A stretch of 59,311 bases of DNA from an uncultured Candidatus Saccharibacteria bacterium (GCA_964505155.1 CAZDGL010000005.1:1-59311); one strand, 5' to 3'; numbered from the stretch's first letter, positions 18,303 to 42,611 are shown. Numbers and translations are program-made. The notes: generated by a model not told the origin, from the letters alone.

Positions 18303-19368
18303 ATATATAATCAGCTAAAGCAAGACCTATGGCCGTAACATAGCTCATAGAGGCTTCTTTGTTTATCTCTGGGATAAAGTTTTCTGTCGAGAAACAGTTT
18401 TTCCACGGGTTTACTTGTACTACTTTTAACTTAAGAGCACTGCTTAGATAATCGTCTAGCCCCAAAAGGTTGCTATGTCCCCCGCAGAGATAGATAGTGT
18501 CTATTGTTGGGAAGGTTCCGAGTTGATTTTTCTTTTCATACCAATAAGTATAACGGCGATTGATTTCGTCTTTTAGTACAGAGATACTGTTTACCAAAAC
18601 AGAAAAAGTATCTTTATCAGAATTGTTTTTTATCAAGCCATTTTCTCTTTTTATTTTTTCTGCTTCTTCTATAGAAATAGAAAACTCCTTGGCAAGGTTT
18701 TGGGTCAACAACTTACCACCAAAGTCGAGTGTGGCAGTAATCATAGCTGTTTTGTTGGTAACGATAGTGATACCAGTTCTGTTGGCTCCAAAATCAACAA
18801 TCATACAAGATCCTTTATCACTTGGATCAAGAACCGCTCTTGCTATAGCTTGACCCTCCAGCTCAAAACTTACAGGTATTATATCTGCTGAAAAAAAGGC
18901 GTTAAAATAGTTGGTTGTTACAGTTTCAGAGAGAGCCACAACTTGCACTATTATCCCAGACTCACTTACACCCAAAACATGGTAGTCAAATACAGTCTCT
19001 ATAGCCTTTAGAGGGATATTGTCTTCTATCAAAAGCTCGATAGCTGAACGAATATCTCCGCTAGCGCTCGGATCCAGAGATAAGGTGAAAGAATAAACCT
19101 GAGACTCTGGAATAGAAACTCGAACGTATTTGAGTTTGTATTTTTTTTGGACTTCTTTTAGAAAAGAAATAAACTTTTCATTATCAACTATTCTACCTCC
19201 TTTCATACAACCTTCTGGGATGCTCATCTCAGCAAATCTCTTGGGCACCAAACCGTCCACTGTGATACCAAGAGCAACAAAACGCATAGTAGCGTCAGAA
19301 AAATCCAAGCCTACTGTTGGAATAGCAACAAATGATGGTGTTGGAAATAATCTATTAAAAAGATTCAT
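18295..19368 (-). CDS. pilM: Type IV pilus assembly protein PilM
   Basis: VGLDFSD, MIVDFGA..T, IYLCGG.SNL.GL..YL, NPW, AIGLAL actin-like motifs. Confidence 0.9.
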   Translation of the reverse strand: MNLFNRLFPTPSFVAIPTVGLDFSDATMRFVALGITVDGLVPKRFAEMSIPEGCMKGGRIVDNEKFISFLKEVQKKYKLKYVRVSIPESQVYSFTLSLDPSASGDIRSAIELLIEDNIPLKAIETVFDYHVLGVSESGIIVQVVALSETVTTNYFNAFFSADIIPVSFELEGQAIARAVLDPSDKGSCMIVDFGANRTGITIVTNKTAMITATLDFGGKLLTQNLAKEFSISIEEAEKIKRENGLIKNNSDKDTFSVLVNSISVLKDEINRRYTYWYEKKNQLGTFPTIDTIYLCGGHSNLLGLDDYLSSALKLKVVQVNPWKNCFSTENFIPEINKEASMSYVTAIGLALADYIYD

Positions 19369-19477
19369 CCCGCTTAGAAACAGGTCGCGGTCACCGCAGA
19401 CACTGTTAAGTTTATTTGTTTAATACTTTTTTCAACCATTTTTTTAATTCCCTCCGCGATCGCGGTTTCTAACGGGA
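19369..19477 (-). mobile_element. 109-bp MITE, copy 1, flanked by a duplicated ATGAA (pilM start codon)
   Basis: TIRs TCCCGTTAGAAAC / GTTTCTAAGCGGG; homologous to 42355-42464. Confidence 0.85.
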
Positions 19478-19515
19478 TTCATCCTAAATATTATACGAGA
19501 TTGTGAGAGATATTA

Positions 19516-19848
19516 CTATCTAACTTTTGCGCCCGGTGCAACTGCTTTTTCTGGAACCAAAAAAACTGGCTCACCATCTAGTCCGTCCACTGCCATAAGC
19601 ATACCTTGAGACTCTAGTCCCATCATCTCTCTTGGTGCTAGATTGATTACAAAAAGCATTTTTTTTCCCACCAAAGTACTTGGTTCATACCAAGCCTTGA
19701 TGCCCGAGAGTATTTGCCTAGGCTTTTCTTCTCCAAAATCAAGCATAAGCTTGATGAGCTTGTCTGATCCTGGTACCTCTTCAGCAGAAATAACCTCTCC
19801 GATACGGGCTTCTAGTTTTTTAAATTCGTCTATTGTTAAATATTCCAT
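19516..19848 (-). CDS. Stand-alone tRNA-binding OB-fold protein (Trbp111/CsaA/MetRS C-terminal-like)
   Basis: TIDEFKKLEARIGEV, SDKLIKL..DFG, RQILSGI, NLAPR.MMGLESQGML. Confidence 0.9.
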   Translation of the reverse strand: MEYLTIDEFKKLEARIGEVISAEEVPGSDKLIKLMLDFGEEKPRQILSGIKAWYEPSTLVGKKMLFVINLAPREMMGLESQGMLMAVDGLDGEPVFLVPEKAVAPGAKVR

Positions 19849-19883
19849 CCTATTATTCTACTTTATAAAAAATAAAATAAAAA

Positions 19884-19909
19884 CTGCTCCCGTTTATTGG
19901 CGGGAGCAG
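19884..19909 (-). terminator. Intrinsic terminator
   Basis: CTGCTCCCG-N8-CGGGAGCAG followed by a long U-tract on the minus strand. Confidence 0.8.
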
Positions 19910-20150
19910 AGTTAGTTTGTTGCGATTAAGAATTATACAAAGAACTAAAAGAAATAAAAGGTTTCTTAATCAGGAGGCCAGTTTACAACAAACAGCTAAA
20001 GCAATAAGGGCGTGTCTGGATGATTTCCTCAGCCACCATAGCTAAGTTACACCTACAAGCTCGTGCCTTTTGCGTAATCGCCTATTTACTATTTTCCAAC
20101 AGTTTAGACGCGAAACTTTGAATGAAAGGCCATTCAAAAATCATCTTATA

Positions 20151-20531
20151 CTATTTCCTATTTTTATCAAGAAATCTCTGAAGTATTATTGCGGCGGCAC
20201 TATCATCCCTATCCCCTCTGTCTGTTTGATATCTATGTGCCTCTACTGAAGAAAATCCTTCTCTTTCAAAAAAGACCTCTAAACAGGTTTGTTCTTTGAG
20301 TTTTTCAGCAAAAGCTTTTGAGGCTTCTAAGATAATATTGCTCTCCCCACTATTTGCCAGCGACTCTCCTATGACAATAGCACTGATGTTTTCTTCTTTA
20401 GCTAAAACCTTAATGAAATCTAAGGCTTCCCCTAAAGGAACTATTTTTTTTGGAAAGGCAAAAGAAGCTTCTTCATCAGAAATAGCAATCCCTACCTTTT
20501 TTGTTCCAAAATCTACCCCTAGATATCTCAT
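20151..20531 (-). CDS. ruvX: YqgF/RuvX family nuclease
   Basis: MRYLGVDFGTKKVGIAISD, DDSAAAIILQRFLD; ATG at 20531. Confidence 0.93.
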   Translation of the reverse strand: MRYLGVDFGTKKVGIAISDEEASFAFPKKIVPLGEALDFIKVLAKEENISAIVIGESLANSGESNIILEASKAFAEKLKEQTCLEVFFEREGFSSVEAHRYQTDRGDRDDSAAAIILQRFLDKNRK

Positions 20532-20608
20532 AGAGATTAGATTATCACAAAGATTGAAAAAAAGCGCTTGTTGTGGTAAATTCATGCTGTTCCAACAAAC
20601 ACATACAC

Positions 20609-20693
20609 GGAGGTGTCGCATAGTGGTTTAGTGCACCTGTCTTGAAAACAGGAGTACCGCAAGGTACCGGGAGTTCGAATCCCCCCACCTCCG
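20609..20693 (+). tRNA. tRNA-Ser (UGA)
   Basis: GGAGGTG acceptor; CCTGT-CTTGAAA-ACAGG; long variable arm GTACCGCAAGGTAC. Confidence 0.96.
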
Positions 20694-20754
20694 CTAGTAA
20701 TTTTATAAATTAAACAAAAAATTGTTTAGGTGCTAAAAAGAAATTCAGACTTAT

Positions 20755-21360
20755 ATGATTTTATTAAAAGGATTATTACTTGGATTTCTAATCGCTGCTC
20801 CTATTGGTCCAATCGGGGTTCTTTGTATTCAGCGTACTTTAAATAAGGGAAGGTTTTCAGGTTTTGTATCTGGTTTGGGTGCCGCAACCGCAGATGCATT
20901 TTACGGAGCAGTAGCTGCTTTTGGATTATCTATAATTTCTAATTTTCTTATTGAGCAACAACTTATTCTTCGCCTCGTTGGTGGAGCATTTTTGTTATAT
21001 TTTGGCGTTAAATCTTTTTACTCAAAAACAAAAGAGTTTAATATAAACATGAATACTAACACAAAATTAGCTAGTGATTATCTTTCTACTGTTTTTCTAA
21101 CAATGACAAATCCTATGACTATTATTTCTTTTATTGCCGTGTTTACAGGAACTGGCTTTTTAACAGGGAGCCTTAGATCAGCATCTCTTTTGGTGGTCGG
21201 AGTCTTTTTAGGCTCAGCTCTATGGTGGCTAACTTTAAGTTTAGGTGTTGGATGGATCAAATCAAAAATAAATAATTTCTCTCTAAATACATTAAATAAG
21301 GTTTCGGGAATAGTTATTATTATCTTTGCTTTGTTAATTTTATTTGAGATATTCAAATAA
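20755..21360 (+). CDS. LysE family translocator
   Basis: APIGPIGVLCIQRTL, GLGAATADAFY, TMTNPMTIISF. Confidence 0.92.
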   Translation: MILLKGLLLGFLIAAPIGPIGVLCIQRTLNKGRFSGFVSGLGAATADAFYGAVAAFGLSIISNFLIEQQLILRLVGGAFLLYFGVKSFYSKTKEFNINMNTNTKLASDYLSTVFLTMTNPMTIISFIAVFTGTGFLTGSLRSASLLVVGVFLGSALWWLTLSLGVGWIKSKINNFSLNTLNKVSGIVIIIFALLILFEIFK

Positions 21361-21444
21361 TCATACATAAACCTTCAGATAAATTCGACCAATTATAATT
21401 AACTTTGCTATACTAAAACCATAATAATAATTAATTTTGTATTT

Positions 21445-21756
21445 ATGAATCAGAAATTGAAGGGTTTTATGGATTTTATTAGAGAACAAGGCGTAGTCGG
21501 GCTTGCTGTTGGTTTCATCCTTGGAGGTGCAGTTGCCAAGATAGTTTCTTCTTTGGTAGAGAACGTCATCAACCCTCTAGTGGGCCTTGCTCTTGGCAAG
21601 GTTGATCTCGCTGACAAAGCTGTAACTATGGGTGGCACAACACTTAAGTATGGCGCCTTTATCTCTACTCTTGTGGACTTTGTAATCATCGCAGCTGTTG
21701 TTTATTTTGGGGTCAAAGCTCTCGGACTAGACAAGCTTGATAAAAAATCAGAATAA
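21445..21756 (+). CDS. mscL: Large-conductance mechanosensitive channel
   Basis: GFMDFIREQGVVGLAVGFILGGA..KIVSSLV..VINP, YGAFIS..VDF. Confidence 0.93.
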   Translation: MNQKLKGFMDFIREQGVVGLAVGFILGGAVAKIVSSLVENVINPLVGLALGKVDLADKAVTMGGTTLKYGAFISTLVDFVIIAAVVYFGVKALGLDKLDKKSE

Positions 21757-21764
21757 CTTTTGAT

Positions 21765-21793
21765 AAAAGCCTCGCGTCAAATGCGAGGCTTTT
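21765..21793 (+). terminator. Terminator after mscL
   Basis: AAAAGCCTCGC-N7-GCGAGGCTTTT. Confidence 0.75.
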
Positions 21794-21809
21794 ATGTTAC
21801 AATTTAAAA

Positions 21810-22265
21810 ATGAAACCAGTATCTTGGAAAACGCTAGAATTTCAAAAAAAGAACAGGCATCCTGATTGGGTTTGGGGAGTAGGACTCATATCTGCCCTAT
21901 CTGCTATAGTCTCGTTTTTCTATGGCAACATTTTCTTTGGTATTTTTCTAATAGTTGCAGGTGTAGTGACTATTATCTATGCCTTCAAAGATCCAAAAGA
22001 GTTAGAAATAACTATCTCCGAAAAAGGCATCTCTATCAATGGTGAAGACATAGAATACAAAAACATAAATGCTTTTTGGCTTGACGAAACTGGGAAAGAA
22101 GCTAAGCTATTACTGCTCGTCAAAGGATCTTTTCTCCCAACTCTTTCCTTTCCTCTCTTTGGGGTCAGTGCTACTGAGGTTCGGGAAGCTTTGGCGCCAA
22201 ATGTAAAAGAGCAAGAAATGCGTGAATCAAGGAGCATAGCACTGTTTGACCGCCTCGGATTCTAA
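21810..22265 (+). CDS. Hypothetical 2-TM membrane protein with a PH-like soluble domain
   Basis: W..LEF, two TM helices, ITISEKGISING..I.Y; TACAAT 6 nt before the ATG. Confidence 0.8.
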   Translation: MKPVSWKTLEFQKKNRHPDWVWGVGLISALSAIVSFFYGNIFFGIFLIVAGVVTIIYAFKDPKELEITISEKGISINGEDIEYKNINAFWLDETGKEAKLLLLVKGSFLPTLSFPLFGVSATEVREALAPNVKEQEMRESRSIALFDRLGF

Positions 22266-22270
22266 ATATT

Positions 22271-22342
22271 CCTCTCGTCGTTCAATGGATAGGACGCAAC
22301 TTTGCGGAAGTTGTGATGTAGGTTCGATTCCTACCGAGAGGA
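22271..22342 (+). tRNA. tRNA-Arg (GCG)
   Basis: CCTCTCG/CGAGAGG acceptor; CAACT-TTGCGGA-AGTTG; GGTTCGATTCC. Confidence 0.93.
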
Positions 22343-22536
22343 CAATGTAAATGGCCCCCACTTGGGGGCTTTTTACATTGTCCTCGAGAATGAGCAAACT
22401 GCTTTGCTCATGTGTAGGAATCGAACGACGGAGTCATATTTTCTCATCAGAGAAAATAGACGAGTCGGTGCCCAGACCTTTTGCGAGAGCAAAAGAGTCG
22501 AGGGAGATAAACGAAGTGGTCCTACCGAGAGGACAA
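22343..22536 (+). mobile_element. tRNA-associated hairpin-rich element, copy at tRNA-Arg(GCG)
   Basis: Core shared with the His copy; inverted copy of the tRNA 3' end, and a 17-bp direct repeat TCCTACCGAGAGGACAA (22329-22345 = 22520-22536). Confidence 0.85.
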
Positions 22537-22595
22537 GTGAGTCTCAAAGAAAGCTTGCTTTCGTTTGAGCGAACGCGGACTCTCGAAAAACTCTA

Positions 22596-23123
22596 CTAAG
22601 ATGCTTCGTATAAATCTACCGAATAAGACCCGCACCAATTCAAAGAATTGTTGAAATAAAAGGTATAATTCTTAACCCCGCAAGACAATGGGTTGTTTGA
22701 TGCTTCAAACTTTGTTGTTAGATCGTATTGTGAAGGATAAACATAGCGCCCAACATTACCATAAGTATAAGTAAATTCATTTACTGTCCAAGGGTGTGTC
22801 CCTACATTTTTTGGATCAATAGGAAGAGATGCTATATAAGGACTGAGGTAAGATGCAAAGGTTGTTGACCACTCGGGTGTATTGCTTGAGAAGTATCCAT
22901 TACAATCATAACCACAAGGTCCTGGAGGATAATAACCATTTTCACTATAGTAAAGTTCGAGTGCGATTCTTATTTGATGTAAAGCATTAATTCTCTGTGA
23001 ATCTCTAGCCTTTGCTCGAGAAGTATTGATCGAGACCAAAACAACACTAGCAATGAGACCGATTATTGCGAAGACGGTTAGTAACTCAAGTAGCGTAAAC
23101 CCTTTAGAGAGATTTTTTTTCAT
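22596..23123 (-). CDS. Type IV pilin / GspG-like prepilin
   Basis: KGFTLLELLTVFAIIGLIA class III signal, ARDSQR, ALELYY, LPIDP; ATG at 23123. Confidence 0.92.
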   Translation of the reverse strand: MKKNLSKGFTLLELLTVFAIIGLIASVVLVSINTSRAKARDSQRINALHQIRIALELYYSENGYYPPGPCGYDCNGYFSSNTPEWSTTFASYLSPYIASLPIDPKNVGTHPWTVNEFTYTYGNVGRYVYPSQYDLTTKFEASNNPLSCGVKNYTFYFNNSLNWCGSYSVDLYEAS

Positions 23124-23187
23124 AGTAATCACTTCAAGTATTATAACCCCTTTTTTATGCCGTACACAACAAAAAATTTGAGTATTG

Positions 23188-23472
23188 CTACAGTTCGACA
23201 CCTTTGGCAAACTCAGGGCAAGCCCACTCCTTCAGTTCCTGATATTTGACTTCCCCACAAAGCCATTTCTTGGTCTCGGTATCATAGTAAAAAGGTAGGC
23301 CCCCACAAGCATCGTCTGTGTCCCACTCTTTAACCATCGCCATATTGTCTTTGTTATGCCAAACTTCTTTGCGAATGATTTTGACATTGGGAAACTCCTT
23401 CATTAGTTTTTCAGTGAGCTTGAGCATCTTTTGACAATGCGGACACTCTTCTCCATAAAATTCGTATAACAT
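23188..23472 (-). CDS. Thioredoxin/glutaredoxin-fold protein
   Basis: FYGEECPHC motif, GGLPF. Confidence 0.85.
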   Translation of the reverse strand: MLYEFYGEECPHCQKMLKLTEKLMKEFPNVKIIRKEVWHNKDNMAMVKEWDTDDACGGLPFYYDTETKKWLCGEVKYQELKEWACPEFAKGVEL

Positions 23473-23510
23473 AAGTGGGTTTTAGTTTATAGTTGCTAGT
23501 TTGTAGATTA

Positions 23511-23545
23511 TAACAGAAAAACACCTCACGGTGTTTTTCTGTTAT
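23511..23545. terminator. Terminator-like hairpin
   Basis: TAACAGAAAAAACACC-TCAC-GGTGTTTTTCTGTTA. Confidence 0.65.
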
Positions 23546-23574
23546 TTCTAAGCGAGGGGGGTCGTAATATTGTT

Positions 23575-23721
23575 TTTGCACCGAGAACTCGATTTTTCAA
23601 AAGCGAGTACAAAAATACTACAATATAAAATCTGTGTTTCGCAGGGCGACTGGCCCGAGAAGCAGCAATCCGCCACCAGGCGGATATGCGACAGATTTTA
23701 TATTGTAGTATTTTTTACGAG
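23575..23721. repeat. Long inverted-repeat element after rpsT
   Basis: Perfect 25-bp arms 23611-23635 / 23691-23715 around a GC-rich core containing ATCCGCC-ACCA-GGCGGAT. Confidence 0.7.
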
Positions 23722-23724
23722 CGA

Positions 23725-23985
23725 CTATTTCTCTTTCGCTGTCTTAGACAATAGCGCCTTCTTGCGAGCAGCGGTGTTTTTCTTTATAACACCCTTTTTG
23801 ACGGCCTTATCGATAGCACTATAACCTTCAGAGATAGAAGCTTTAGCATCTTTCCATTTTTTGGCTACTGCAAGCTTTTGAGTGTTTTTGATAGCTTCTT
23901 TAAAGTTCTTTTTGACACGGTCGTTTACCGCTTTCTTTTTAAGCGAACTTCTTAGGGCTTTTTTTGCATTTCTGGTGATTGGCAT
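23725..23985 (-). CDS. rpsT: 30S ribosomal protein S20
   Basis: MPITRNAKKALR, AIDKAVKKGVIKKNTAARKK. Confidence 0.97.
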   Translation of the reverse strand: MPITRNAKKALRSSLKKKAVNDRVKKNFKEAIKNTQKLAVAKKWKDAKASISEGYSAIDKAVKKGVIKKNTAARKKALLSKTAKEK

Positions 23986-24070
23986 ATGTGACGAAGACTA
24001 TATCAACAAAACGCCAAAATAGCAATAGTTGCTACCCCAAAGCCCCCTTGTTTGGTATTATGTCAGTATA

Positions 24071-24619
24071 ATGATCGCTCAAATCTCTGGAAAAATCATA
24101 GAACAGAAAGATAAGGAAATAGTCCTCGATGTTGGAGGTATTGGTTACTGTGTTTTTACAAACTATACAAATCTTGATACTAGTGAAAAAATCACTCTTT
24201 ACACACACCTTGTTATCAAAGATGATGCTCACGAACTTTATGGATTTCAAAACAAAGAAGAGCGAGATTTGTTTCGAGTACTCATAAGTGTAAGTGGTGT
24301 CGGACCCAAGACTGCTCTCCAAATGCTCACTTTATACTCTCTCCCCGACTTGGTGCGCATCATAAAAAGCGGAGATGCCAAAGCAATCGCTCTTGTACCT
24401 GGTATCGGCAAAAAAACCTCTGAAAAGGTGGTTATAGATCTTAAAGACAAAGTAGATGCTTTTTCAAGCTCAAGCGCAAAAGCAAGTACTGACCTTGTCG
24501 AAGCGCTCCTGTCTCTTGGCTACAAAGATATTCAAATAAGAAACGTGCTTCCTTTAGTGGATGAAAAACTAGCCATAGAAAAACAAATAACTGAAGCACT
24601 TAGATTGATCCAAAAGTAA
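24071..24619 (+). CDS. ruvA: Holliday junction branch migration protein RuvA
   Basis: DVGGIGY, LYGF...EERDLF..L.SVSGVGPK, PGIGKKTSEK, ALLSLGY; ATG at 24071. Confidence 0.96.
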   Translation: MIAQISGKIIEQKDKEIVLDVGGIGYCVFTNYTNLDTSEKITLYTHLVIKDDAHELYGFQNKEERDLFRVLISVSGVGPKTALQMLTLYSLPDLVRIIKSGDAKAIALVPGIGKKTSEKVVIDLKDKVDAFSSSSAKASTDLVEALLSLGYKDIQIRNVLPLVDEKLAIEKQITEALRLIQK

Positions 24620-24620
24620 T

Positions 24621-25544
24621 ATGCCTGAACTTCCTGAAGTCCAAACAACAGTCAACGGAATCAACCAAAAAGCCAAAAATCAAAGGATTGTTGATGTTTG
24701 GACTGATTTGGCCGTACCTAACCCTATAAAACAATTCATTGGAACAATAAAAGATGAGGGTTTCTTTAAATCTTTTAAAAAGATTGTTAAAAATACAAAA
24801 ATACTAAAAGCTGAGAGAAGGGCAAAAAATATACTCATTCATTTAAATAATGGTTACACAATACTAGTCCACATGAAAATGACCGGGCATATGATGTATG
24901 GGAGATATGATTTTGATAAAAATCAAAAAAAATGGGCACCTCACAAAGGCGAAAAAAATGAGGCTCTTCGAGATCCCTACAATAGATTCATTCACTTTGT
25001 TTTGTCTTTTGAAAATGATAAAAACTTAGTCTTATCTGACGTTAGAAAATTTGCCAAAGTAGCCTTGATAAAAACTCCAGAGGTTTTTGACTCTATCCAC
25101 CTAAAACACCATGGACCTGAGCCCTTAAGTGAAAATTTTAGCCTGGAAGATTTCCAAAAAAGAATTTCCAAAAAACCAAATGGCTTTATCAAGCAAGTCT
25201 TACTTGATCCCAAAATAGTCTCAGGTATAGGCAATATATACGGCGATGAACTTCTTTGGGAAGCAGGAGTTCATCCGCTACGCAAAGTAAAAGATGTAAA
25301 TAAAAAGGAATTTGCCTTGATGTACAAAGCTATGAAAAATGTACTTCAAAAAGGTATAGATTTTGGTGGAGACTCTATGAGTGACTACCGAGATATAGAC
25401 GGCAAAAGAGGGGCCTTTCAAAATGACCACAACGCTTATAGGCTCACAGGAAAACCTTGTAAAAAAAGAGGTTGTAAAGGAAAAATAGAAAGAATCTTGG
25501 TAGGTGCTCGCAGTGCGCACTTTTGTAGTATTCATCAGAAATAA
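24621..25544 (+). CDS. mutM: Formamidopyrimidine-DNA glycosylase
   Basis: MPELPEV, HMKMTG, D.RKF, GIGNIY.DE, C-terminal zinc finger. Confidence 0.96.
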   Translation: MPELPEVQTTVNGINQKAKNQRIVDVWTDLAVPNPIKQFIGTIKDEGFFKSFKKIVKNTKILKAERRAKNILIHLNNGYTILVHMKMTGHMMYGRYDFDKNQKKWAPHKGEKNEALRDPYNRFIHFVLSFENDKNLVLSDVRKFAKVALIKTPEVFDSIHLKHHGPEPLSENFSLEDFQKRISKKPNGFIKQVLLDPKIVSGIGNIYGDELLWEAGVHPLRKVKDVNKKEFALMYKAMKNVLQKGIDFGGDSMSDYRDIDGKRGAFQNDHNAYRLTGKPCKKRGCKGKIERILVGARSAHFCSIHQK

Positions 25545-25675
25545 CTAAGAAAACACAGTGCATACAAAAATATAACTTGCGCAGGCTGACTGAGCCGAGC
25601 AGGAACAAAAATCTACCAAGATTTTATGTGTTTATATTTTTGTATGCACTGTGTTTTCGGTGTTACAATATAATC

Positions 25676-25843
25676 ATGGATGAACTAAAATGGTTTTTAT
25701 ATGCTTTCTTTGGTCTTTGGATTTTATGGCTAATAACTGGCGGACCAGGCCGTTTTGAAAACAGAAACAGAGAGCTCCTCGAGCAACCTTCCCCTATTGA
25801 AGGCGGTAGACCTTACACAATAAAAGAACTACGAAATAAGTAA
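25676..25843 (+). CDS. Small single-TM protein (55 aa)
   Basis: MDELKWFLYAFFGLWILWLITGGP; TACAAT 6 nt before ATG 25676. Confidence 0.65.
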   Translation: MDELKWFLYAFFGLWILWLITGGPGRFENRNRELLEQPSPIEGGRPYTIKELRNK

Positions 25844-25847
25844 GTTT

Positions 25848-26324: not shown

Positions 26325-26438
26325 ATGCCCTTCATGGTATAGTTTTTTTGCATTTTTGCAATTATGCGCTTTTAGCTAAGCTGTAGCGGCTCCACGTGCA
26401 ACAAACCATATACAGCAAAAATGATTGAAATAAAATAT

Positions 26439-26511
26439 GCGCTTATAGCTCAGCTGGTAGAGCAGCTCCCTTTTAAGGAGACGGTCGCAGGTTCGAATCC
26501 TGCTAAGCGCA
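26439..26511 (+). tRNA. tRNA-Lys (UUU)
   Basis: GCGCTTATAGCTCAGCTGGTAGAGC; loop CTTTTAA; GGTTCGAATCC. Confidence 0.96.
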
Positions 26512-34192: not shown

Positions 34193-34209
34193 AGATACAT
34201 AGTTAAAGC

Positions 34210-35259: not shown

Positions 35260-35307
35260 TTATCAGAGTTTTTACGGTATTGAAAAATATTTTTTGATTT
35301 CTAATAT

Positions 35308-35336
35308 ATCATAGCATATCTAGACTTATTTGTCAA
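35308..35336 (-). promoter_or_regulatory. sigma70 promoter TTGACA-N17-TATGAT
   Basis: Plus strand TGTCAA 35331-35336, ATCATA 35308-35313. Confidence 0.7.
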
Positions 35337-35410
35337 ATGCCAATTCTCCCCCTGTTTTGGAGGCCAAAATAGGCGATAAAATAAGACATTTAAGTTATAC
35401 TATCTATACA

Positions 35411-37129
35411 ATGGTTCAATTTGATGAAAACGAACAACAAAAAAGGTTAGGCGAGCTTCGTGACCAAGAAGAAGAAAGTTTGGTTGCTATGCTAGCGCAA
35501 AATAAATACCAAATCCCTTTTATTGATCTCTCAGCCCAAGCGATAGACAACGATGCCATCCGACTTTTAACAGAAGAAGAAGCCAAGGCTTATGATGTCG
35601 GACCCTACAAACTCGTTGGCAAAAAGCTTTTCTTGGCAGTGCGCTCCCCTGTAGCAGATGGTGCTCTAAAGGCCAAAGAAGTGCTTGAGGCTAAGGGCTT
35701 TGTCGTAACTATGGTCATGGCCTCAGAAAAAAGTATCAAAAAGGTTTGGAGCCATTACCAGGATCTATCTTTTGCTACTACTTCTCGCCGAGGTGGACTC
35801 GATGTTGCACCTGATGTTTTGGCAGACCTTAGTCAAAAGATTTCTAAGACTGAAGACGCAGTTAGAGAAATAGAGCTCGCAATAAATCAAAAAGATGCCA
35901 AGCAACACATCTCAAGAATCTTGGAAATTATTTTGGGCTCTGGTATAGGACTCGGTGCTTCTGATGTCCATGTAGAGCCGATGGAAGACAAAGTGGAGCT
36001 ACGTTTTCGCCTCGATGGAGTCTTGCGAGTCATTACTCACTTTGACTATGAAACATACAAACAGATAAACACTCGTATCAAACTCCTCTCGGGGATGAAA
36101 CTCACTATCGCAAGCAATCCTCAAGATGGACGCTTCAGCGCCTTTTTACCAGAGAGCGGAACCGAAAAAGAAATAGAAATCTCTTTCCGTACTTCTATGA
36201 TCCCTGGTGCATATGGCGAAAGTATCGTACTTCGTATACTCAACCCAAAGTCTATACAAGTAAAGCTTGATGAGCTTGGTATTAGCGCCCCACTTTTCAA
36301 ACTCTTCACTGAAGAAATCCAAAAACCAAACGGCATGATACTTCTCACCGGTCCGACAGGCTCTGGTAAGACCACTACTTTGTATGCCTTCCTCCAACAA
36401 ATATATTCTCCTGAGAAAAAAATCATCACTATCGAAGACCCGATCGAGTATCACCTCGCTGGTATCACCCAAACCCAAACCGATCACAAAAAAAACTACA
36501 CCTTCCTTGAAGGACTCCGATCAGCACTGCGACAAGACCCTGACGTTATCATGGTCGGTGAGATTCGAGACCCAGAGACTGCTAAGATCGCTGTTGAGTC
36601 AGCACTAACGGGTCACATGGTTTTCTCTACTCTTCACACCAACAACGCTGAAGGTGTTATTCCTCGACTTATAGATCTCGATGTAAATCCCAAGATTTTG
36701 GTTTCAGCACTCACCCTCTCTATCGCTCAGCGACTAGTGAGAAAACTTTGTAATGACTGTAAAGAAGAGCAAGACATCACGAGTGAAGAACGCTCTCATA
36801 TAGATAGGATTTGGCAACAAGCTATAGCTGAAGGCAAAGACATAGCGAGTTTTGGAGTATCAAAAGACATTACGAAGCTATACCGAGCAAAAGGTTGCGC
36901 GCTTTGCAACAACACTGGCTACAAAGGACGTATTGGGATATTTGAAGTTATTAAAACTGATGAAAATATAGAAAAGGTCATCACTCAAAATCTAAGTGAG
37001 CGAGAAATCAAAAAAATATCTGAGAAGCAAGGTTATCTAGATATGAAAGAAGATGGACTTATAAAAATCTTGCAAGGTGTGACTGATTTTGCAGAAGTTG
37101 AAAGCGTGGTGGATTTGGTTGAAGACTAA
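35411..37129 (+). CDS. Type IV pilus / type II secretion assembly ATPase (PilB/GspE family)
   Basis: ASDVHVEP, PQDGRF, GPTGSGKTTTLY, TIEDPIEY, LRQDPDVIMVGEIRD, CxxC..CxxC, GYKGRIG; ATG at 35411. Confidence 0.95.
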   Translation: MVQFDENEQQKRLGELRDQEEESLVAMLAQNKYQIPFIDLSAQAIDNDAIRLLTEEEAKAYDVGPYKLVGKKLFLAVRSPVADGALKAKEVLEAKGFVVTMVMASEKSIKKVWSHYQDLSFATTSRRGGLDVAPDVLADLSQKISKTEDAVREIELAINQKDAKQHISRILEIILGSGIGLGASDVHVEPMEDKVELRFRLDGVLRVITHFDYETYKQINTRIKLLSGMKLTIASNPQDGRFSAFLPESGTEKEIEISFRTSMIPGAYGESIVLRILNPKSIQVKLDELGISAPLFKLFTEEIQKPNGMILLTGPTGSGKTTTLYAFLQQIYSPEKKIITIEDPIEYHLAGITQTQTDHKKNYTFLEGLRSALRQDPDVIMVGEIRDPETAKIAVESALTGHMVFSTLHTNNAEGVIPRLIDLDVNPKILVSALTLSIAQRLVRKLCNDCKEEQDITSEERSHIDRIWQQAIAEGKDIASFGVSKDITKLYRAKGCALCNNTGYKGRIGIFEVIKTDENIEKVITQNLSEREIKKISEKQGYLDMKEDGLIKILQGVTDFAEVESVVDLVED

Positions 37130-37141
37130 GGGGGCGCTCGA

Positions 37142-37213
37142 AGGTAGGTGTATCACTTTTTTACTGCGGGGCGCCTACGCGTAGTCCTCGTCGCAAAAGT
37201 GATACGCCTACCT
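37142..37213. repeat. Inverted-repeat element A
   Basis: 19-bp arms (one mismatch) around a 34-nt GC-rich core. Confidence 0.75.
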
Positions 37214-37240
37214 CCTCGCTTTAAATAATAAATTACAGAA

Positions 37241-37321
37241 AGTAAAAAGGGTTACATTATTTGAGCAGTGAGGACTCTGCGTAGGCATCCGCAACAAGCA
37301 AATGATGTAACCCTTTTTACT
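37241..37321. repeat. Inverted-repeat element B
   Basis: 23-bp arms (one mismatch) around a core homologous to the reverse complement of core A. Confidence 0.75.
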
Positions 37322-37330
37322 AAAAACAAA

Positions 37331-37349
37331 AGAAGGTTTTAAGCCTTCT
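37331..37349 (-). terminator. Terminator directly after the Cys-rich small ORF
   Basis: AGAAGG-N7-CCTTCT followed by TTTGTTTTT on the minus strand. Confidence 0.6.
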
Positions 37350-37355
37350 CAAAAA

Positions 37356-37481
37356 TTAACACCAACCCTTACAACTTCCTGCCTCCGTACACGCAACGTA
37401 ACCTACGTCACACTTAAAACAAGACTGTTTGGGGTTTTTGTTTCTAAAAAGAAACTTTGTAAAGAATCTCAGGATTGCCAT
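37356..37481 (-). CDS. Unannotated 41-aa Cys-rich peptide MAILRFFTKFLFRNKNPKQSCFKCDVGYVACTEAGSCKGWC
   Basis: Hand translated; below the ORF track cutoff; upstream TATAAT (37523-37528) and downstream terminator. Confidence 0.5.
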   Translation of the reverse strand: MAILRFFTKFLFRNKNPKQSCFKCDVGYVACTEAGSCKGWC

Positions 37482-37546
37482 TGTTGTTTTTTAAATAAAA
37501 TAAATAGATCGTTTCTTATAAAATTATAAGATAAAAAAACAAAAAA

Positions 37547-37680
37547 ACATAAATCTCTAAACAGTCCGTATGAGGACAAGCCAGCATACGTAAAGCATGA
37601 TTGTAGGATAGCTCCAGTCGAAACCAAGGCGTCCTGCGCCTACACTTAGAACCGGAGGCTGACTGCTTAGAGATTTATGT
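37547..37680. ncRNA. Structured ncRNA candidate (6S-RNA-like long irregular hairpin)
   Basis: Perfect 14-bp closing stem plus CAGTC/GACTG; internal helices CGTATG/CATACG and TGTAGG/CCTACA; GC-rich within an AT-rich spacer; strand uncertain. Confidence 0.5.
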
Positions 37681-37742
37681 CTTCTTGATGTAAAATACTC
37701 TTGTATTTATTTCCAAGAACAATATAGCATATACTAAATATT

Positions 37743-38732
37743 ATGTCAATAGACGATACAACCTCCAATTTTTCTCCTGCTGAAGACCAGTTTTCGGACA
37801 ATGTTTTGCGTCCACAATCTTTTGATGACTATATCGGACAAGAACACATCAAAAAAAATCTAAGTGTGCTCATTGGCGCTGCTAAAGAACGCGGTCACAA
37901 CCCTGAGCACATACTTTTTTATGGGCCACCAGGCTTAGGAAAGACTACTTTGGCACACGTTATCGCTCGTGAAGTTGGAGCGAATATAAAAATCACATCT
38001 GGTCCATCTATCGAACGTGTTGGCGACCTTGCTGCTATCCTTACCAACCTCCAGCCCGGTGACATGCTCTTTATAGATGAGATACATCGCCTCAACAAAA
38101 ACATAGAGGAGGTGCTCTACCCTGTCATGGAAACAGGCAAGCTCGATATCATGATCGGCAAAGGCCCGAGTGCTCGCACTGTTCAACTCGACTTACCACC
38201 TTTTACTTTGCTTGGCGCTACTACTCGCTTTGGGATGATTAGCGCGCCACTACGCAGTCGTTTCTCTGGTGGAGCATTTCGTCTAGAGTTTTATACTCCA
38301 AGTGAAATAGGTACTATTTTAAATCGCTCAGCCAATATCCTAAACATCTCTCTACCAGAGAGTGCCAAAGAAAATATCGCCAAAAGAAGCCGCCAAACTC
38401 CCCGTATCGCCAACTACCTACTTCGCCGAGTACGAGACTATGCACAAATGAATCGTAGCAACCTCGATGAAAGTTCTGTAAAAAAGGCCTTCGAAATGCT
38501 TGGGCTCGATGAACATGGTCTTGGCAATCAAGATCTCGTCTTTATGAAAACTATACTGGAGAAATTTGGTGGTGGGCCTGTCGGAGTCAAAAACATCGCT
38601 ACTGCTATGGGTGAAGATGAGGGTACCATCGAAGATGTAGTGGAGCCATACCTCATCCAGCTCGGATTCCTCGAACGCACTCCCCGTGGCCGAATCATTA
38701 CCGAAAAAGGAAAAGAGTATTTGAAAAAATAA
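37743..38732 (+). CDS. ruvB: Holliday junction branch migration DNA helicase RuvB
   Basis: LRPQSFDDYIGQ, GPPGLGKTT, LFIDEIHRL, ERTPRGR. Confidence 0.98.
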   Translation: MSIDDTTSNFSPAEDQFSDNVLRPQSFDDYIGQEHIKKNLSVLIGAAKERGHNPEHILFYGPPGLGKTTLAHVIAREVGANIKITSGPSIERVGDLAAILTNLQPGDMLFIDEIHRLNKNIEEVLYPVMETGKLDIMIGKGPSARTVQLDLPPFTLLGATTRFGMISAPLRSRFSGGAFRLEFYTPSEIGTILNRSANILNISLPESAKENIAKRSRQTPRIANYLLRRVRDYAQMNRSNLDESSVKKAFEMLGLDEHGLGNQDLVFMKTILEKFGGGPVGVKNIATAMGEDEGTIEDVVEPYLIQLGFLERTPRGRIITEKGKEYLKK

Positions 38733-39247
38733 TGTTAAATCAAAAACAAAAAGTTATCGCTATAGATCCAGGATACGATCGCTGTGGAGTTGCAGTTTTG
38801 GAACAGGCTGCAGGAAAACCTGAGGTCATATTTTCTACTTGTATCACCAGCACCAAAACAGATGAGCAGTATTTGCGTTTGGCTTCTATATTTAAAGAGC
38901 TTGAAAAAGTAATCCGAGAATACTATCCGACCCATATGGCGATAGAGACGCTATTTTTCTCAGTCAACAAAAAGACTGCTATCAAGGTGGCGGAAGCAAG
39001 AGGCGCAATTCTTGCCCTAGCTGGCACGCAAGGGCTCAGTGTGCTGGAGCTCTCTCCTCAAGCAGTCAAAATATCTATGACAGGCACAGGAAACGCTACA
39101 AAAGAGCAAATAGAAAAGATGGTAAAACTGACAGTAAAACTCCCAGAAAAGAACAAACTTGATGATGAGATAGACGCTATCGCGCTCGGAGTAGCGAGCC
39201 TACAAATACTACACCTTGAAAATATAAAAAAGGGTATTGCCAAATAA
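38732..39247 (+). CDS. ruvC: Crossover junction endodeoxyribonuclease RuvC
   Basis: AIDPGYDRCG, MAIETLFF, VAEARG, DDEIDAIAL. Confidence 0.96.
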   Translation: MLNQKQKVIAIDPGYDRCGVAVLEQAAGKPEVIFSTCITSTKTDEQYLRLASIFKELEKVIREYYPTHMAIETLFFSVNKKTAIKVAEARGAILALAGTQGLSVLELSPQAVKISMTGTGNATKEQIEKMVKLTVKLPEKNKLDDEIDAIALGVASLQILHLENIKKGIAK

Positions 39248-39305
39248 AACGGTATTTGATACAACTTATAGCATTAAAAGCTGATAAAAATATATTTCGT
39301 AAAAT

Positions 39306-39545
39306 ATGGATTTAGATACAGGTAACACAGTAAACGAAGATGAATTAAATGATCTTGGTATAAAGAAAAAAAATGACGCCGATATAGACGTTGACCCAGA
39401 CGCTTTACTCGACCCAGAAGAAGTAGTAGACCCTCTCTCAGAAGAAGAGGGTAAGGAAGAGGAAGACAGAGGTATGTTTGGCGAAGATGCAGAACTCGAA
39501 AGATACGTACTAGATCCCTACGAAGACAATAAAGAATATAACTAA
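39306..39545 (+). CDS. Small, highly acidic protein
   Basis: 79 aa, 30 of them Asp/Glu; followed by a terminator. Confidence 0.75.
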   Translation: MDLDTGNTVNEDELNDLGIKKKNDADIDVDPDALLDPEEVVDPLSEEEGKEEEDRGMFGEDAELERYVLDPYEDNKEYN

Positions 39546-39580
39546 ACAATAAAACCACCAAAAGGGTGGTTTTATTGTTT
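39544..39580. terminator. Bidirectional terminator
   Basis: AAACAATAAAACCACC-N5-GGTGGTTTTATTGTTT between convergent genes. Confidence 0.8.
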
Positions 39581-39587
39581 TAAAAAA

Positions 39588-39983
39588 CTATTCTCCTTCT
39601 TCAAAATCTAATGAACAAGAGTTGATGCAGTAATGCTTACCCGTAGAAGTCTCTTCGTCATCAAAAAGATGTCCGAGGTGGGCGGCACAGTTAGCGCAGA
39701 GTACTTCTGTCCTCTTGTAACCAAGTTTTATGTCATCCTTAAACACAACCGAGCCAGGCACAGCATTTTCAAATGCCGGCCAACCACGAAGCCCGAGCGG
39801 TCCCTCAACAGAATTTAGTTTGGTATCTGAAGCAAAGAGTAAAGCTCCGCAAACCTTGCATCTGTATTCGCCTTTTTGATCATTATCCCAGTATTTGTTG
39901 TCAAAAGGTTTTTCAGTGCCCCCATGTTGGGTAACTATTATTTCTTCCTGTGAAAGAGTTTTTAACTTTTGTTCTTTATCCAT
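39588..39983 (-). CDS. msrB: Peptide-methionine (R)-S-oxide reductase
   Basis: GTEKPF, CKVCG..LF, GWPAF, RTEVLC.NC..HLGHLFDD, HYCINS. Confidence 0.96.
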   Translation of the reverse strand: MDKEQKLKTLSQEEIIVTQHGGTEKPFDNKYWDNDQKGEYRCKVCGALLFASDTKLNSVEGPLGLRGWPAFENAVPGSVVFKDDIKLGYKRTEVLCANCAAHLGHLFDDEETSTGKHYCINSCSLDFEEGE

Positions 39984-40001
39984 GAGATAAGTATACTCTC
40001 C

Positions 40002-40463
40002 TTATTTTCTAGAGCACTTCTCACAAGCACAACCCTTTGGTTTGATGTGTTCATCAAAGTATTCTTTGCCGTAGTCATAGTTGAGCTCTTCTCCTACTGC
40101 GATAGCGCGCTTAGCATATACAAAGACTCTTCCTCTAACAATATCTACTTCACAGTTAGGCTTACACGAGTGGTTGATATAGCGAGCGATGTTGGTGCGC
40201 GCAGTACCGTCTATATGCCTGTTTTTAGAAGTTTGAAATAGATAGCGACCCCCCCTGCGATTTGCTTCAGCGTCGTTTATGATTTCTCCGACGTATTCAA
40301 TAATGCAATCACCTTTTTTCATGGGCACCTTGGCAAAGAGTCCGAGGCCATTGACCCCACGCTTGGTGGCTAAGTCTTGTGGGTATTTATATATAGGGAC
40401 ATTTTTTGGGAATCCGCCAGCTGGCGGATTTTTCTTTGTTTTCTTAACAGTTTTCTTTTTCAT
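40002..40463 (-). CDS. SET-domain protein-lysine methyltransferase
   Basis: GLGLFA, IIEYVGE, NIARYINHSCKPN, GEELNYDYG, post-SET CACEKC. Confidence 0.93.
   Translation of the reverse strand: MKKKTVKKTKKNPPAGGFPKNVPIYKYPQDLATKRGVNGLGLFAKVPMKKGDCIIEYVGEIINDAEANRRGGRYLFQTSKNRHIDGTARTNIARYINHSCKPNCEVDIVRGRVFVYAKRAIAVGEELNYDYGKEYFDEHIKPKGCACEKCSRK
40411..40430. repeat. Perfect 20-bp palindrome inside the SET coding sequence
   Basis: AATCCGCCAG-CTGGCGGATT, read in frame as NPPAGG. Confidence 0.75.
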
Positions 40464-40483
40464 AAAGCTCAATTGTATCACAG

Positions 40484-41344
40484 TTATTTAGACCACTTTG
40501 CGTAAATACCTGTTGTAAGTACACGATCGGTATTTTTTTGCTCTATGCCGATGTCACCATAGGAAATATTTCCGTTAGGTAGTGCCTGTGCAAGCAGTTC
40601 GGCAAAGGTTCGGGCTGAGTATTCAGCTGCATAGCCGTTTAGGATGACTAGGCGAGCCTTTAGAGAAAGTATTTGGGGTATCAAAGAGAGTAGCTCAGAA
40701 AGAGAGTCTTGTATCTTCCACACCTCCCCTTTTGGTCCACGACCAAAAGCCGGCGGGTCCATAACTATAACTTCAAACTGCTCACCTCTTTGAATGAGCC
40801 TTTTTACATATCTCAAAGTATCTTCACAAACAACTCTAATACTGTCGTTTGGTAGCCCAGAGAGGCGCATGTTTTCTTTGACAGTAGCGATGGTGGTCTT
40901 GGAAGCGTCTATGTGTGTCACCTCCATACCTGCGAGCGCTCCAGCTACACTAGCAGCTCCTGTATAACCAAAAAGGTTGAGCATTCTGAGCCCTTTGTTT
41001 TTGGTCCCTAGAGCAATTATTTCATCCCAATGATGAGAGTGTTCTGGAAAAACACCAACATGCTTGAAACCCTTACATGAGAGTTCTAGAGTAATGTCTT
41101 TGTAAGAAAAGTTCCAAACCTCTGCCAACCCTTTATCGAGTTTCCACCTCTCACCTTTTTGTGCCCAGACAAACTGCGCATTTGAAGTGGTCCAAATCTT
41201 TGGATCAGACTTTTTCCAAAGGACTTGTGGATCAGGTCTGTCTGTCACTACAGTACCAAACCTTTCAAGTTTTCTACCCTCTCCAGAATCTAGGAGCTCA
41301 TAATCAGTCCAAGTCGAAATAGTGATGTCTTCTCTTTTAATCAT
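40484..41344 (-). CDS. Class I SAM-dependent methyltransferase (RlmI/RlmK-like)
   Basis: LLDSG.G.KLERFG, HVGVFPE, LNLFGYTGAAS, IVMDPPAFGRG. Confidence 0.9.
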   Translation of the reverse strand: MIKREDITISTWTDYELLDSGEGRKLERFGTVVTDRPDPQVLWKKSDPKIWTTSNAQFVWAQKGERWKLDKGLAEVWNFSYKDITLELSCKGFKHVGVFPEHSHHWDEIIALGTKNKGLRMLNLFGYTGAASVAGALAGMEVTHIDASKTTIATVKENMRLSGLPNDSIRVVCEDTLRYVKRLIQRGEQFEVIVMDPPAFGRGPKGEVWKIQDSLSELLSLIPQILSLKARLVILNGYAAEYSARTFAELLAQALPNGNISYGDIGIEQKNTDRVLTTGIYAKWSK

Positions 41345-42242
41345 TGTTTTTGTAGATTTGATTTAATGCTCCCAAAAGATCTGGGTATTTAAAAACAAAA
41401 CCTTTGTCCATAAGTTTCTTTGGAGAGACTTTTTGGTTTTTGGTTATTTCTTCAAAAAACTTTCCAAACATTTTCTTGGCTATAAATTTAGGCACACTTC
41501 CTAGAAGCTTTCTTCCAATAGTGCGAGCTAAGGTTTTCATAAAGTCACTGTGTTTTATAGGGTTGGGAGAAGAAGCGTTAAACTGTCCTTGTAAGGTGGT
41601 GGTCTCTAGTGCAAAAAGATAAGTATTTACTATATCTTCCTCATGAATCCACGACATCCAAAAATCTTGTTTTTTGAGTTTCAACAAAAAGCCAAACTTG
41701 GCTGTCTTAGTCATTTGTGAGAGAAATCCTCCGTGCCCTAAAACCGGAGCAGTTCTAACAGAGACGGTTCGGACGCCTAAACTGGTCGCTTCTTTAGTTA
41801 TCGCTTCCCATGAGTCTACAACTTCTGCCAAAAACCCCTCACCACGAGGACAAGACTCATCGCAAGTATCGTCTTTTGTATCTCCATAATATCCGATAGC
41901 TGAAGCGCAGATGAAACAAAGTGGTTTATTTTTGGTATTTTTTATTGTTTCAATGATGTGTTTAGTACTTTCTATACGACTAGAGTATATAGCTTTCATG
42001 CTATTTGGTGTCCACTTGGTAGCTATGTTTACACCGGCAAGATTTATAACAGCATCGGTTTGTTCAAGAACATCATAAGGAAGAGGGCTAGTAGAAATAT
42101 CACAGCGGATAAAGAAAAGTTCTGGGTGAATAATGCTTGGAGACTTGATGTCTATAACTACCACTCTATGCCCAAGAGAAAGAAGTCTTTGGGATAAAAG
42201 CGATCCGATATAACCACTTCCCCCTGCAATAACTATTGTCAT
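41337..42242 (-). CDS. TIGR01777-like NAD-dependent epimerase (YfcH family)
   Basis: IAGGSGYIG, AVINLAG, SRIESTK, SAIGYYG, SWIHEED, P.KLMDKGFVFKYP. Confidence 0.92.
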   Translation of the reverse strand: MTIVIAGGSGYIGSLLSQRLLSLGHRVVVIDIKSPSIIHPELFFIRCDISTSPLPYDVLEQTDAVINLAGVNIATKWTPNSMKAIYSSRIESTKHIIETIKNTKNKPLCFICASAIGYYGDTKDDTCDESCPRGEGFLAEVVDSWEAITKEATSLGVRTVSVRTAPVLGHGGFLSQMTKTAKFGFLLKLKKQDFWMSWIHEEDIVNTYLFALETTTLQGQFNASSPNPIKHSDFMKTLARTIGRKLLGSVPKFIAKKMFGKFFEEITKNQKVSPKKLMDKGFVFKYPDLLGALNQIYKNND

Positions 42243-42311
42243 ATACACCATTTTAACACGAGCAAGTATCATAAGAGCAAATGACAACATTTATAACGTT
42301 TGTCATCTTTA

Positions 42312-42339
42312 TTGCAAAAAATACAAACTAAGGTAGTAT
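42312..42339 (+). promoter_or_regulatory. Promoter TTGCAA-N16-TAGTAT upstream of MITE copy 2
   Basis: Near-consensus boxes ending 10 nt before the duplicated ATG at 42350. Confidence 0.5.
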
Positions 42340-42354
42340 CAGCCTTATAATGGA

Positions 42355-42464
42355 TCCCGTTAGAAACCGCGGTCGCGGTAGGGGTTAAAAAATATGGTTG
42401 AAAAAAATATTAAACAAATAAGACTAACTGTGTTTGCGGTGACCGCGACCTGTTTCTAATCGGG
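42355..42464 (+). mobile_element. 110-bp MITE, copy 2, flanked by a duplicated ATGGA
   Basis: TIRs TCCCGTTAGAAAC / GTTTCTAATCGGG; homologous to 19369-19477. Confidence 0.85.
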
Positions 42465-42611
42465 ATGGAAGCCATAGAAAAAACAGCTATTTTTATACTC
42501 CGATTTTTAGGATTTGTTGTCCTATCTATTTTCTTTTTACCCTCTTTTTTGATAGTTACTTATCTGCAAGACTCTTGGAGTAAAATGCTTGCGGACATAT
42601 TTAAGGTTTAG
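42465..42611 (+). CDS. Unannotated 48-aa single-TM protein MEAIEKTAIFILRFLGFVVLSIFFLPSFLIVTYLQDSWSKMLADIFKV
   Basis: Hand translated; the ATG is the right-hand target duplication; stop overlaps the tyrS stop. Confidence 0.6.
   Translation: MEAIEKTAIFILRFLGFVVLSIFFLPSFLIVTYLQDSWSKMLADIFKV

Follow-up and report, generated by a model that had tools for sequence, protein, structure and literature searches.

Two copies of a short inverted-repeat element lie in a stretch of 59,311 nucleotides from an uncultured Candidatus Saccharibacteria bacterium (GCA_964505155.1, CAZDGL010000005.1:1-59311), and each of them ends on the start codon of a gene. This whole stretch is called the window below. Copy A, on the minus strand, precedes pilM, the first gene of a pilM/N/O cluster, and copy B, on the plus strand, precedes a hydrophobic open reading frame (ORF) of 48 aa (Table 1). 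Read on the minus strand, the locus of copy A is ...TATAAT atttagg ATGAA [TCCCGTTAGAAAC...GTTTCTAAGCGGGA] TGAATCTTT, and the pilM start codon (19368-19366) is rebuilt by the element, whose terminal A (19368) is the A of the ATG. The locus of copy B, read on the plus strand, is ...TAGTAT cagccttata ATGGA [TCCCGTTAGAAAC...GTTTCTAATCGGGA] TGGAAGCC, with TTGCAA 17 nt upstream of the TAGTAT box; here the terminal A (42465) is likewise the A of the ATG (42465-42467). The two copies are ~88-90% identical to each other, and their flanks are unrelated and do not align. Both fold as long hairpins that are stabler than shuffled controls (z = -3.4 and -5.2). A relaxed terminal-repeat search together with a covariance model gave no third copy in the window. 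A first-pass annotation of the sequence had described the -10-like boxes and the 12-codon upstream ORFs (uORFs) at both copies, all of which are present, and had named pilM as one of the genes, an identity that the Pfam match supports. The 48-aa ORF appears to be a real small gene because relatives with an 88% identical TyrRS preserve its reading frame.

Both window copies are precise, recent and still polymorphic insertions, because near-identical strains carry empty alleles with one ATGAA or one ATGGA. The site of copy A is empty in loci L070 and L073, which read ...TATAATatttaggATGAATCTTTTT... with a single ATGAA and flanks identical to the window, and is filled in L071, L072, L074 and L075; pilM loci farther removed lack the element and have GTG as the start codon. 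The site of copy B is empty in L065 (GCA_013565675.1; TyrRS 98% identical), which reads ...cagccttataATGGAAGCC... with a single ATGGA, and also in three contigs at 88% identity (L066-L068), and it is filled in L069 as in the window. At both sites the filled allele exceeds the empty one by the element plus 4 bp. The earlier claim that two homologous inverted-repeat elements had arrived here by real insertion is therefore borne out by these empty alleles.

Table 1. Coordinates of the two window copies with their junctions and neighbouring genes, and sites of the ACTTG class (see text) in other loci
Feature	Position	Strand	Remarks
Copy A of the element	19368..19477	minus	110 nt, TCCCGTTAGAAAC...GTTTCTAAGCGGGA; covariance model 90.4 bits
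Left ATGAA of copy A	19478..19482	minus	A (19482) opened the pilM start codon before the insertion; TGAA (19481-19478), upstream member of the 4-bp target duplication
Right TGAA of copy A	19364..19367	minus	pilM start-codon bases 2-3 and first two bases of codon 2
TATAAT -10-like box	19490..19495	minus	7 nt before left ATG; kept in empty alleles
uORF of copy A, 12 codons	19444-19482	minus	MNPVRNRDRGGN; opened by left ATGAA
pilM	18295..19368	minus	357 aa; Pfam PilM_2, E = 4.5e-34; orthologues 357 aa
Copy B of the element	42355..42465	plus	111 nt; covariance model 93.6 bits
Left ATGGA of copy B	42350..42354	plus	original A and upstream TGGA duplicate
Right TGGA of copy B	42466..42469	plus	downstream member of the 4-bp duplication
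TAGTAT -10-like box	42334..42339	plus	10 nt before left ATG; kept in empty alleles
uORF of copy B, 12 codons	42350-42388	plus	MDPVRNRGRGRG; opened by left ATGGA
48-aa hydrophobic ORF (MEAIEKTAIF...)	42465..42611	plus	also gene-called in L069
ACTTG-class sites	L007:1899, L010:2550, L025:7560, L025:11543, L047:4090, L047:5561, L051:1517, L051:2606, L058:4777, L076:1435, L077:1394		

The wider family was sampled with a search pattern that held only the two 12-nt ends, which returned 18 loci from representative genomes and 40 loci from metagenome contigs. A relaxed search of these loci added copies with variant ends (..AGAAAT, ..AGAAGC, ..AGAGAC, CCCCG..). The family comprises 66 unique copies of 64-130 bp, with up to five inside 14 kb. 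Named host organisms are all Patescibacteria (Paceibacterota, Saccharibacteria, Zambryskiibacteriota, Nomurabacteria or Minisyncoccia), and as far as sampled the family is limited to this group; it is absent from a viral-contig scan (0 matches) and from phage and plasmid searches. The terminal inverted repeats are imperfect and ~25 nt long (TCCCGTTAGAAAC followed by CGCGRTCGC), conservation is confined to the terminal 22-25 nt of each arm, and the AT-rich core is hypervariable. The arms pair as a 13-bp terminal helix with a 1-nt bulge; beyond it the gene-proximal arm has a 4-nt bulge, ACCT or ATCT, and an inner helix of 6-9 bp with compensatory GC to AU changes follows. The superfamily is broader than the search pattern: a more distant relative with other arms (TCCCGTAGTGAAAATGA...TCATTTTCTACTACCGGGA; L007:4260-4349, minus strand) also directly abuts an ATG (ATGAGTCGC...). 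This relative was one of two weak extra hits of the covariance model; the other, L058:10275, is a plain terminator.

Residence at start codons characterizes the whole family. In 58 copies the last base of the element and the two flanking bases open an ORF of at least 40 codons, and the same holds for three further copies where the gene is broken or the contig ends, which places 61 of the 66 unique copies at gene starts. The proposal that the element lands on start codons without breaking the gene, made originally from the two window copies, thus extends to many Patescibacteria, and in a check set beforehand the other copies proved not to be random with respect to start codons. The exceptions are a nested inner copy with a CCTA duplication, one copy with CGAG, and one copy without a duplication. 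About 40 different genes carry the element. Downstream proteins match Pfam families for YchF, SSB, TsaD, EF-P, GatC, RecA, L29, L24, SHMT, AtpA, S7, GreA, RNase J, SMC, trigger factor, L31, L25, G6PD and L2, and the host genes, glyA among them, include many for ribosomal proteins. In the proteins downstream, the Pfam match sets in at residues 1-5, so the abutting ATG marks the true N-terminus. Every gene-start copy has the same orientation relative to its gene, and under the covariance model the sense strand outscores the antisense strand by 40-55 bits.

Two of these gene starts have particular features. The rpmE (L31) start is occupied in three genomes (L035:1519, L048:8934 and L036:2587) by three different elements; the copies in L048 and L036 have a common odd left flank, TATGA, with differing end subtypes and unrelated cores, which suggests that one element was replaced by another in place. 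The gene that follows the element in L012 (from position 1485; MKIRNIAIIAHPSGRA*) has 16 codons before a stop and looks like a frameshifted translational GTPase start, either a pseudogene or an assembly error.

The junctions reveal how the start codon is rebuilt. A perfect 4-bp duplication flanks 42 of the 66 copies (TGAA 21, TGGA 12, TGTA 3, TGAG 3 and three others), and several more match at 3/4 positions. The element ends ...GGGA, and its final A together with the TG of the duplication makes the ATG, with the second codon also intact. The terminal T and A are invariant in 21/21 aligned copies, though they lie outside the search pattern. Of the two duplication lengths first considered, 4 bp (TGNA) stands, with the terminal T and A borne by the element, and 5 bp is rejected. 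A 4-bp duplication with an element-borne first base fits three diagnostic cases: L009, where the left flank is GTGGA and the right flank ATGGA; the nested CCTA copy, which behaves alike; and a variant with C...G ends, which reads ATGAA at its left junction and GTGAA at its right one, leaving a GTG start. The first base of the rebuilt start codon is donated by the element.

The duplicated bases themselves come from the target. Copies with related cores at different genes each have a duplication matching their own target, such as TGAA for copy A and TGGA for copy B in the window, or TGAA at recA and TGTA at ssb in L010. In addition, A is the fifth base of ATGNA in 36/39 copies, compared with a share of 49% among the ATG starts of these loci (P ~1e-8), a real sequence preference that goes beyond merely "being a start codon". 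Nested pairs, in which one element lies in the gene-proximal arm of another with the CCTA duplication, occur at L014:3044-3278, L027:9533-9767 and L054:707-949, in at least two different lineages; the ATG of greA, or of another gene, still follows the outer copy directly.

The surroundings of the left ATG bear on what the element recognizes. Among 43 copies, 13 hexamers match TATAAT at at least 5/6 positions, with a peak 6-7 nt before the left ATG, and the first-pass annotation had proposed that the element targets leaderless start sites, perhaps in melted promoter DNA. This proposal does not hold in general. As many as 21 of 59 copies lie within 25 nt behind an upstream ORF on the same strand, mostly 1-7 nt past its stop or overlapping it; operon-internal examples are L16|L29, L14|L24, L4|L23 and L23|L2, with 3-7-nt spacers or ATGA stop/start overlaps. 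At pilB in L025, where five relatives carry empty alleles, the insertion is at the ATG, yet the -10 box lies 8-11 nt upstream in those alleles. The operon-internal copies and pilB therefore identify the landmark as the start codon, not the transcription start or the open promoter complex. Scarce Shine-Dalgarno motifs and -10 boxes just before the ATG are general in the genome and not specific to the targets: a Shine-Dalgarno-like motif precedes 1/73 of the window ORFs, and a TATAAT-like box lies 4-9 nt before the start codon in 17/73; many of these ORFs have their -10 box 6-9 nt ahead of the ATG. The organism appears, from these counts, to rely on leaderless or Shine-Dalgarno-independent initiation. 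The uORF is an accident of the terminal repeat: only its first 7-9 codons are common, its length varies between 9 and 48 codons, and decayed copies as well as the ACTTG class described below lack it.

These features are those by which a MITE (miniature inverted-repeat transposable element) is recognized: the element is short and non-coding, has terminal inverted repeats, generates a duplication, and occurs as dispersed copies with empty and filled alleles. The duplication has a fixed length in 42/66 copies and fails in the ACTTG class. Our explanation is that the window copies belong to a non-autonomous DNA transposon family of this kind, that insertion prefers TGNA, and that survivorship concentrates the copies at start codons; taken jointly, these three parts command about as much belief as doubt. 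A transposase acting in trans would cut with a 4-bp stagger, preferring TGNA. The spacers of gene-dense patescibacterial genomes would hold promoters or terminators or only a few nucleotides, and the start codon may be almost the only place where an insertion does no harm. It would also be sheltered from imprecise deletion, which can clear a copy from a spacer but not a copy wedged against an essential start codon, so that copies would persist there, and only in the tolerated orientation. Once inserted, the element would be co-transcribed, either as the whole 5' leader of a formerly leaderless or nearly leaderless mRNA or as an intercistronic hairpin, and expression would survive since the hosts do not depend on Shine-Dalgarno sequences. 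It can safely be inferred that these Shine-Dalgarno-less hosts tolerate the element as such a co-transcribed hairpin leader or intercistronic spacer, even before essential genes. A double-strand RNase (RNase III type) may cleave the ~22-bp terminal stem, which would leave a short leader or none.

How far survivorship can go was examined with a null model of strict ATG[AG]A specificity in which every insertion touching coding DNA is lost. The non-coding share of the window is 3.8 kb (~6%), and the model expects 75% of survivors at starts there (21 start sites against 7 non-coding sites). Across all loci, weighted by the observed duplications, it expects 36%. The model takes non-coding insertions as neutral, which is possibly false in genomes with ~6% non-coding DNA.

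Several observations weigh against our explanation, and the first group concerns survivorship. All 39 of 39 copies with an ATGNA duplication are at starts, which under the generous model with 25 independent events has P < 1e-3; both demonstrably recent insertions in the window are at starts; and the covariance model found no decayed relics away from starts in the element loci. Start residence beyond the model means that survivorship is very strong or that targeting is real. If targeting is real, the transposition machinery itself picks translation starts, be they promoter-proximal or operon-internal, and provides base one of the start codon; it might recognize an extended A-TGNA where the surroundings are AT-rich, make use of a host factor bound in initiation regions, or act on melted promoter DNA. 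The identical orientation of all gene-start copies also suits such a machinery, as do the peak of -10 boxes before the left ATG and the occupation of the same starts by unrelated sub-lineages (three elements at rpmE, and ssb elements with two duplications). Its promoter-melting version fails for the 21/59 operon-internal or tightly trailing copies and at pilB, and there is no known mechanism by which a DNA transposase sees a start codon. A few non-start copies have duplications other than TGNA (CCTA, CGAG), so the enzyme is not strictly sequence-bound, and the survivorship filter in compact genomes is very strong. We regard start-codon targeting as a serious though rather unlikely alternative, and sequence preference with survivorship is favoured over active targeting only slightly. 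If targeting were true, this would be the first start-codon-specific mobile element, turning leaderless genes into hairpin-led ones, and it might use an unrecognised recombinase conserved in Patescibacteria.

The second group of adverse observations concerns the transposon itself. No pair of ends more than 145 bp apart, as expected of a long element, turned up in the window or in the ~640 kb that the element-bearing loci comprise, and neither the window ORFs tested nor the Pfam hits of L065, L070 and L071 showed a transposase domain. Furthermore, the ACTTG class, with nine to eleven copies in several end subtypes, carries A[CT]TTG directly left of TCCCG, has no duplication, and usually ends on the right in TAATGGGA. 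Five empty alleles of one site of this class place the insertion exactly before the ATG, with CTTG not derived from the target. Readings of ACTTG as a decayed duplicate, or of the site as a 2-bp TG or AT duplication, are not supported by these alleles. Between orthologous copies, identity is 86% over the 5 nt left of the element and 49% over the 10 nt upstream of these, which is not expected of a neutral duplicate.

A second alternative is that a structure-specific recombinase (tyrosine, serine or HUH), and no DDE transposase, moves a folded single strand as at integron attC sites or in IS200/IS605-type elements, the flanking repeat being a shared crossover or target sequence and not a duplication made by repair. 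The two conserved helices split by the 4-nt bulge, with the additional 1-nt bulge and the variable terminal loop, would suit it, as would strict orientation, the four extra nucleotides brought by the ACTTG class, and the fact that no transposase was found in the element-bearing loci and the window. Some sub-lineages also keep one flank, for example a TGGA cluster at three different genes and a CGCGATCGC type always at TGAA. What makes this alternative improbable is that close relatives in one genome carry different flanking repeats, each matched to its target, and that the right repeat is target sequence, preceded by a base that the element contributes. Moreover, the target sites have no common arm-like sequence, and the order of the GTTAGAA/TTCTAAC boxes is the reverse of the attC R''/R' order. 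The variable core as a guide was rejected, since it matches its own flank and other flanks equally, and there is no guide-like complementarity between core and flank.

A third alternative sees in the element mainly a cis-regulatory 5' leader under host selection (a structured RNA, attenuator or uORF device) that was mobile in the past and is now kept for its function, for instance to control the expression of pilus or housekeeping genes. This would agree with the retention of orthologous copies across species with conserved arms and the 86% conserved left 5-mer, with the compensatory changes in the inner helix, and with the hairpin z-scores of the window copies. In addition, both window copies have a small terminator-like hairpin with a T-run in sense orientation just before the ATG, which could compete with the long hairpin. 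This hairpin and the uORF are not family-wide, the ~40 host genes are functionally unrelated, the core is hypervariable, and presence or absence varies among near-identical strains. The element belongs to no Rfam family: a search of the whole window at the gathering threshold returned tRNAs only, and one at E <= 5 over 19300-20200 gave no meaningful match. Folding energy is equal for sense and antisense (P = 0.35), so the sense strand has no advantage and RNA stability does not explain the fixed orientation, a point that also weighs against our transposon explanation. Given all this, we consider a conserved regulatory leader quite improbable. Two related ideas were also tried: a test of RNA against DNA hairpins by wobble pairs gave no difference, with counts confounded by two inner-helix registers, and an antisense-only terminator as the cause of orientation was rejected, the weak terminator-like hairpin being in sense and only in the window sub-lineage.

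Three other features of the window are worth recording. A 286-nt segment at 19849-20150 lies between ruvX and tRNA_bind in the window and likewise in L071 and L072; strain L070 lacks it and has a gap of 16 nt there. At the end of the segment stand a GC hairpin and a T-run, after which comes a TAGAAT box, 6 nt ahead of the following ATG. Rfam has no match to the segment, whose fold z-score is -2.3; it might represent a small RNA gene, or a further segment that is mobile or has been deleted. Also at ruvX, locus L062 (10-1587) carries directly upstream a large serine recombinase (Resolvase, Recombinase and Zn_ribbon_recom domains) that is not there in the window. Next, the tandem paralogous genes at 51995-53686 and 53759-55471 have identical upstream 32 nt, long identical N-terminal halves and differing C-termini, which looks like a recent tandem duplication; their counterpart in L065 carries an NLPC_P60 domain. 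Finally, a TraG/VirB4-like P-loop ATPase (56467-58305) lies beside small membrane ORFs at the window end and could belong to a conjugation or type IV secretion-like cluster.

If this picture holds up, the element is a mobile element with a very precise niche, in which the start codon is repaired by the element's own terminal base. For the study of mobile DNA, it poses the question of whether transposition can find translation starts or whether selection alone, acting on an ultra-compact genome, can give 90%+ residence at one codon. A ~110-nt hairpin stands before essential genes (for ribosomal proteins, recA, ssb, tRNA modification and pili) that are evidently still expressed, and such tolerated hairpins constrain models of translation start in organisms nearly without Shine-Dalgarno sequences. 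Annotation is also affected, since gene callers can be misled by the second ATG and the short uORF. Filled and empty alleles are usable as strain markers, and the pilM copy is a natural polymorphism heading a type IV pilus assembly operon. Type IV pili are thought to be important for the episymbiotic lifestyle.

Among known systems, the Correia elements of Neisseria (CREE/NEMIS) had been offered as an analogue from the start. They are inverted-repeat elements of ~100-150 bp, often near gene 5' ends, co-transcribed and folding into hairpins that RNase III can cleave, with a TA duplication, promoter and IHF sites and hundreds of copies per genome, and they are not tied to start codons. No autonomous partner is known for them, and they are not known outside Neisseria. 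The functional likeness stands, both being inverted-repeat elements of similar size at gene 5' ends, but the defining Correia features are lacking here: the present element has a 4-bp TGNA duplication, TCCCGTTAGAAAC ends that differ from the Correia terminal repeats, and a rebuilt ATG. Transposases of the piggyBac / IS1380-type DDE group make a 4-bp duplication at target TTAA, have ends starting with CCC, and piggyBac is excised with 4-nt flanks. The piggyBac end CCCTAGAAAG resembles CCCGTTAGAAAC here, a short match that may be chance, whereas the target here is TGNA and no such transposase was found in the loci searched. Excision that carries a flank along, as in piggyBac, could by analogy account for the ACTTG class and for the sub-lineage-specific flanks.

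Integron attC sites and IS200/IS605 elements share with this family conserved ends, a variable centre, bulges that give polarity, and strictly oriented insertion. IS200/IS605 elements make no duplication and insert 3' of a fixed 4-5-nt target that the element determines; here, in contrast, the repeat varies with the target among close elements (TGAA/TGGA, TGAA/TGTA), the flanks have no guide-like match, and there is no TnpA nearby. Unlike attC, which lies at cassette 3' ends with R''(RYYYAAC)...R'(GTTRRRY), the element lies at the 5' ends of housekeeping genes with the boxes reversed (GTTAGAA...TTCTAAC), and no integrase occurs in the loci.

The element most resembles bacterial MITEs in being small, non-coding and dispersed, with terminal inverted repeats, a duplication, presence/absence polymorphism and nested insertions. 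It differs from them in lying almost only at start codons, in one orientation, in donating the first base of the start codon, and in having no known cognate transposase. The kind of element is thus already known; near-exclusive residence at starts in a single orientation and first-base donation are, within the literature searched, new. No description of a start-codon-resident element was found in Rfam or in that literature, end sequences included; a Halobacterium paper that came up proved irrelevant, and neither "start codon" nor "leaderless" occurs in a 2024 review of prokaryotic MITEs. Rickettsia palindromic elements, described in the same review, are mobile palindromes that insert in-frame within coding regions and add a peptide segment. 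Like them, the present element survives at normally forbidden positions of compact genomes since the gene stays functional; unlike them, it stays outside the protein and restores the start codon.

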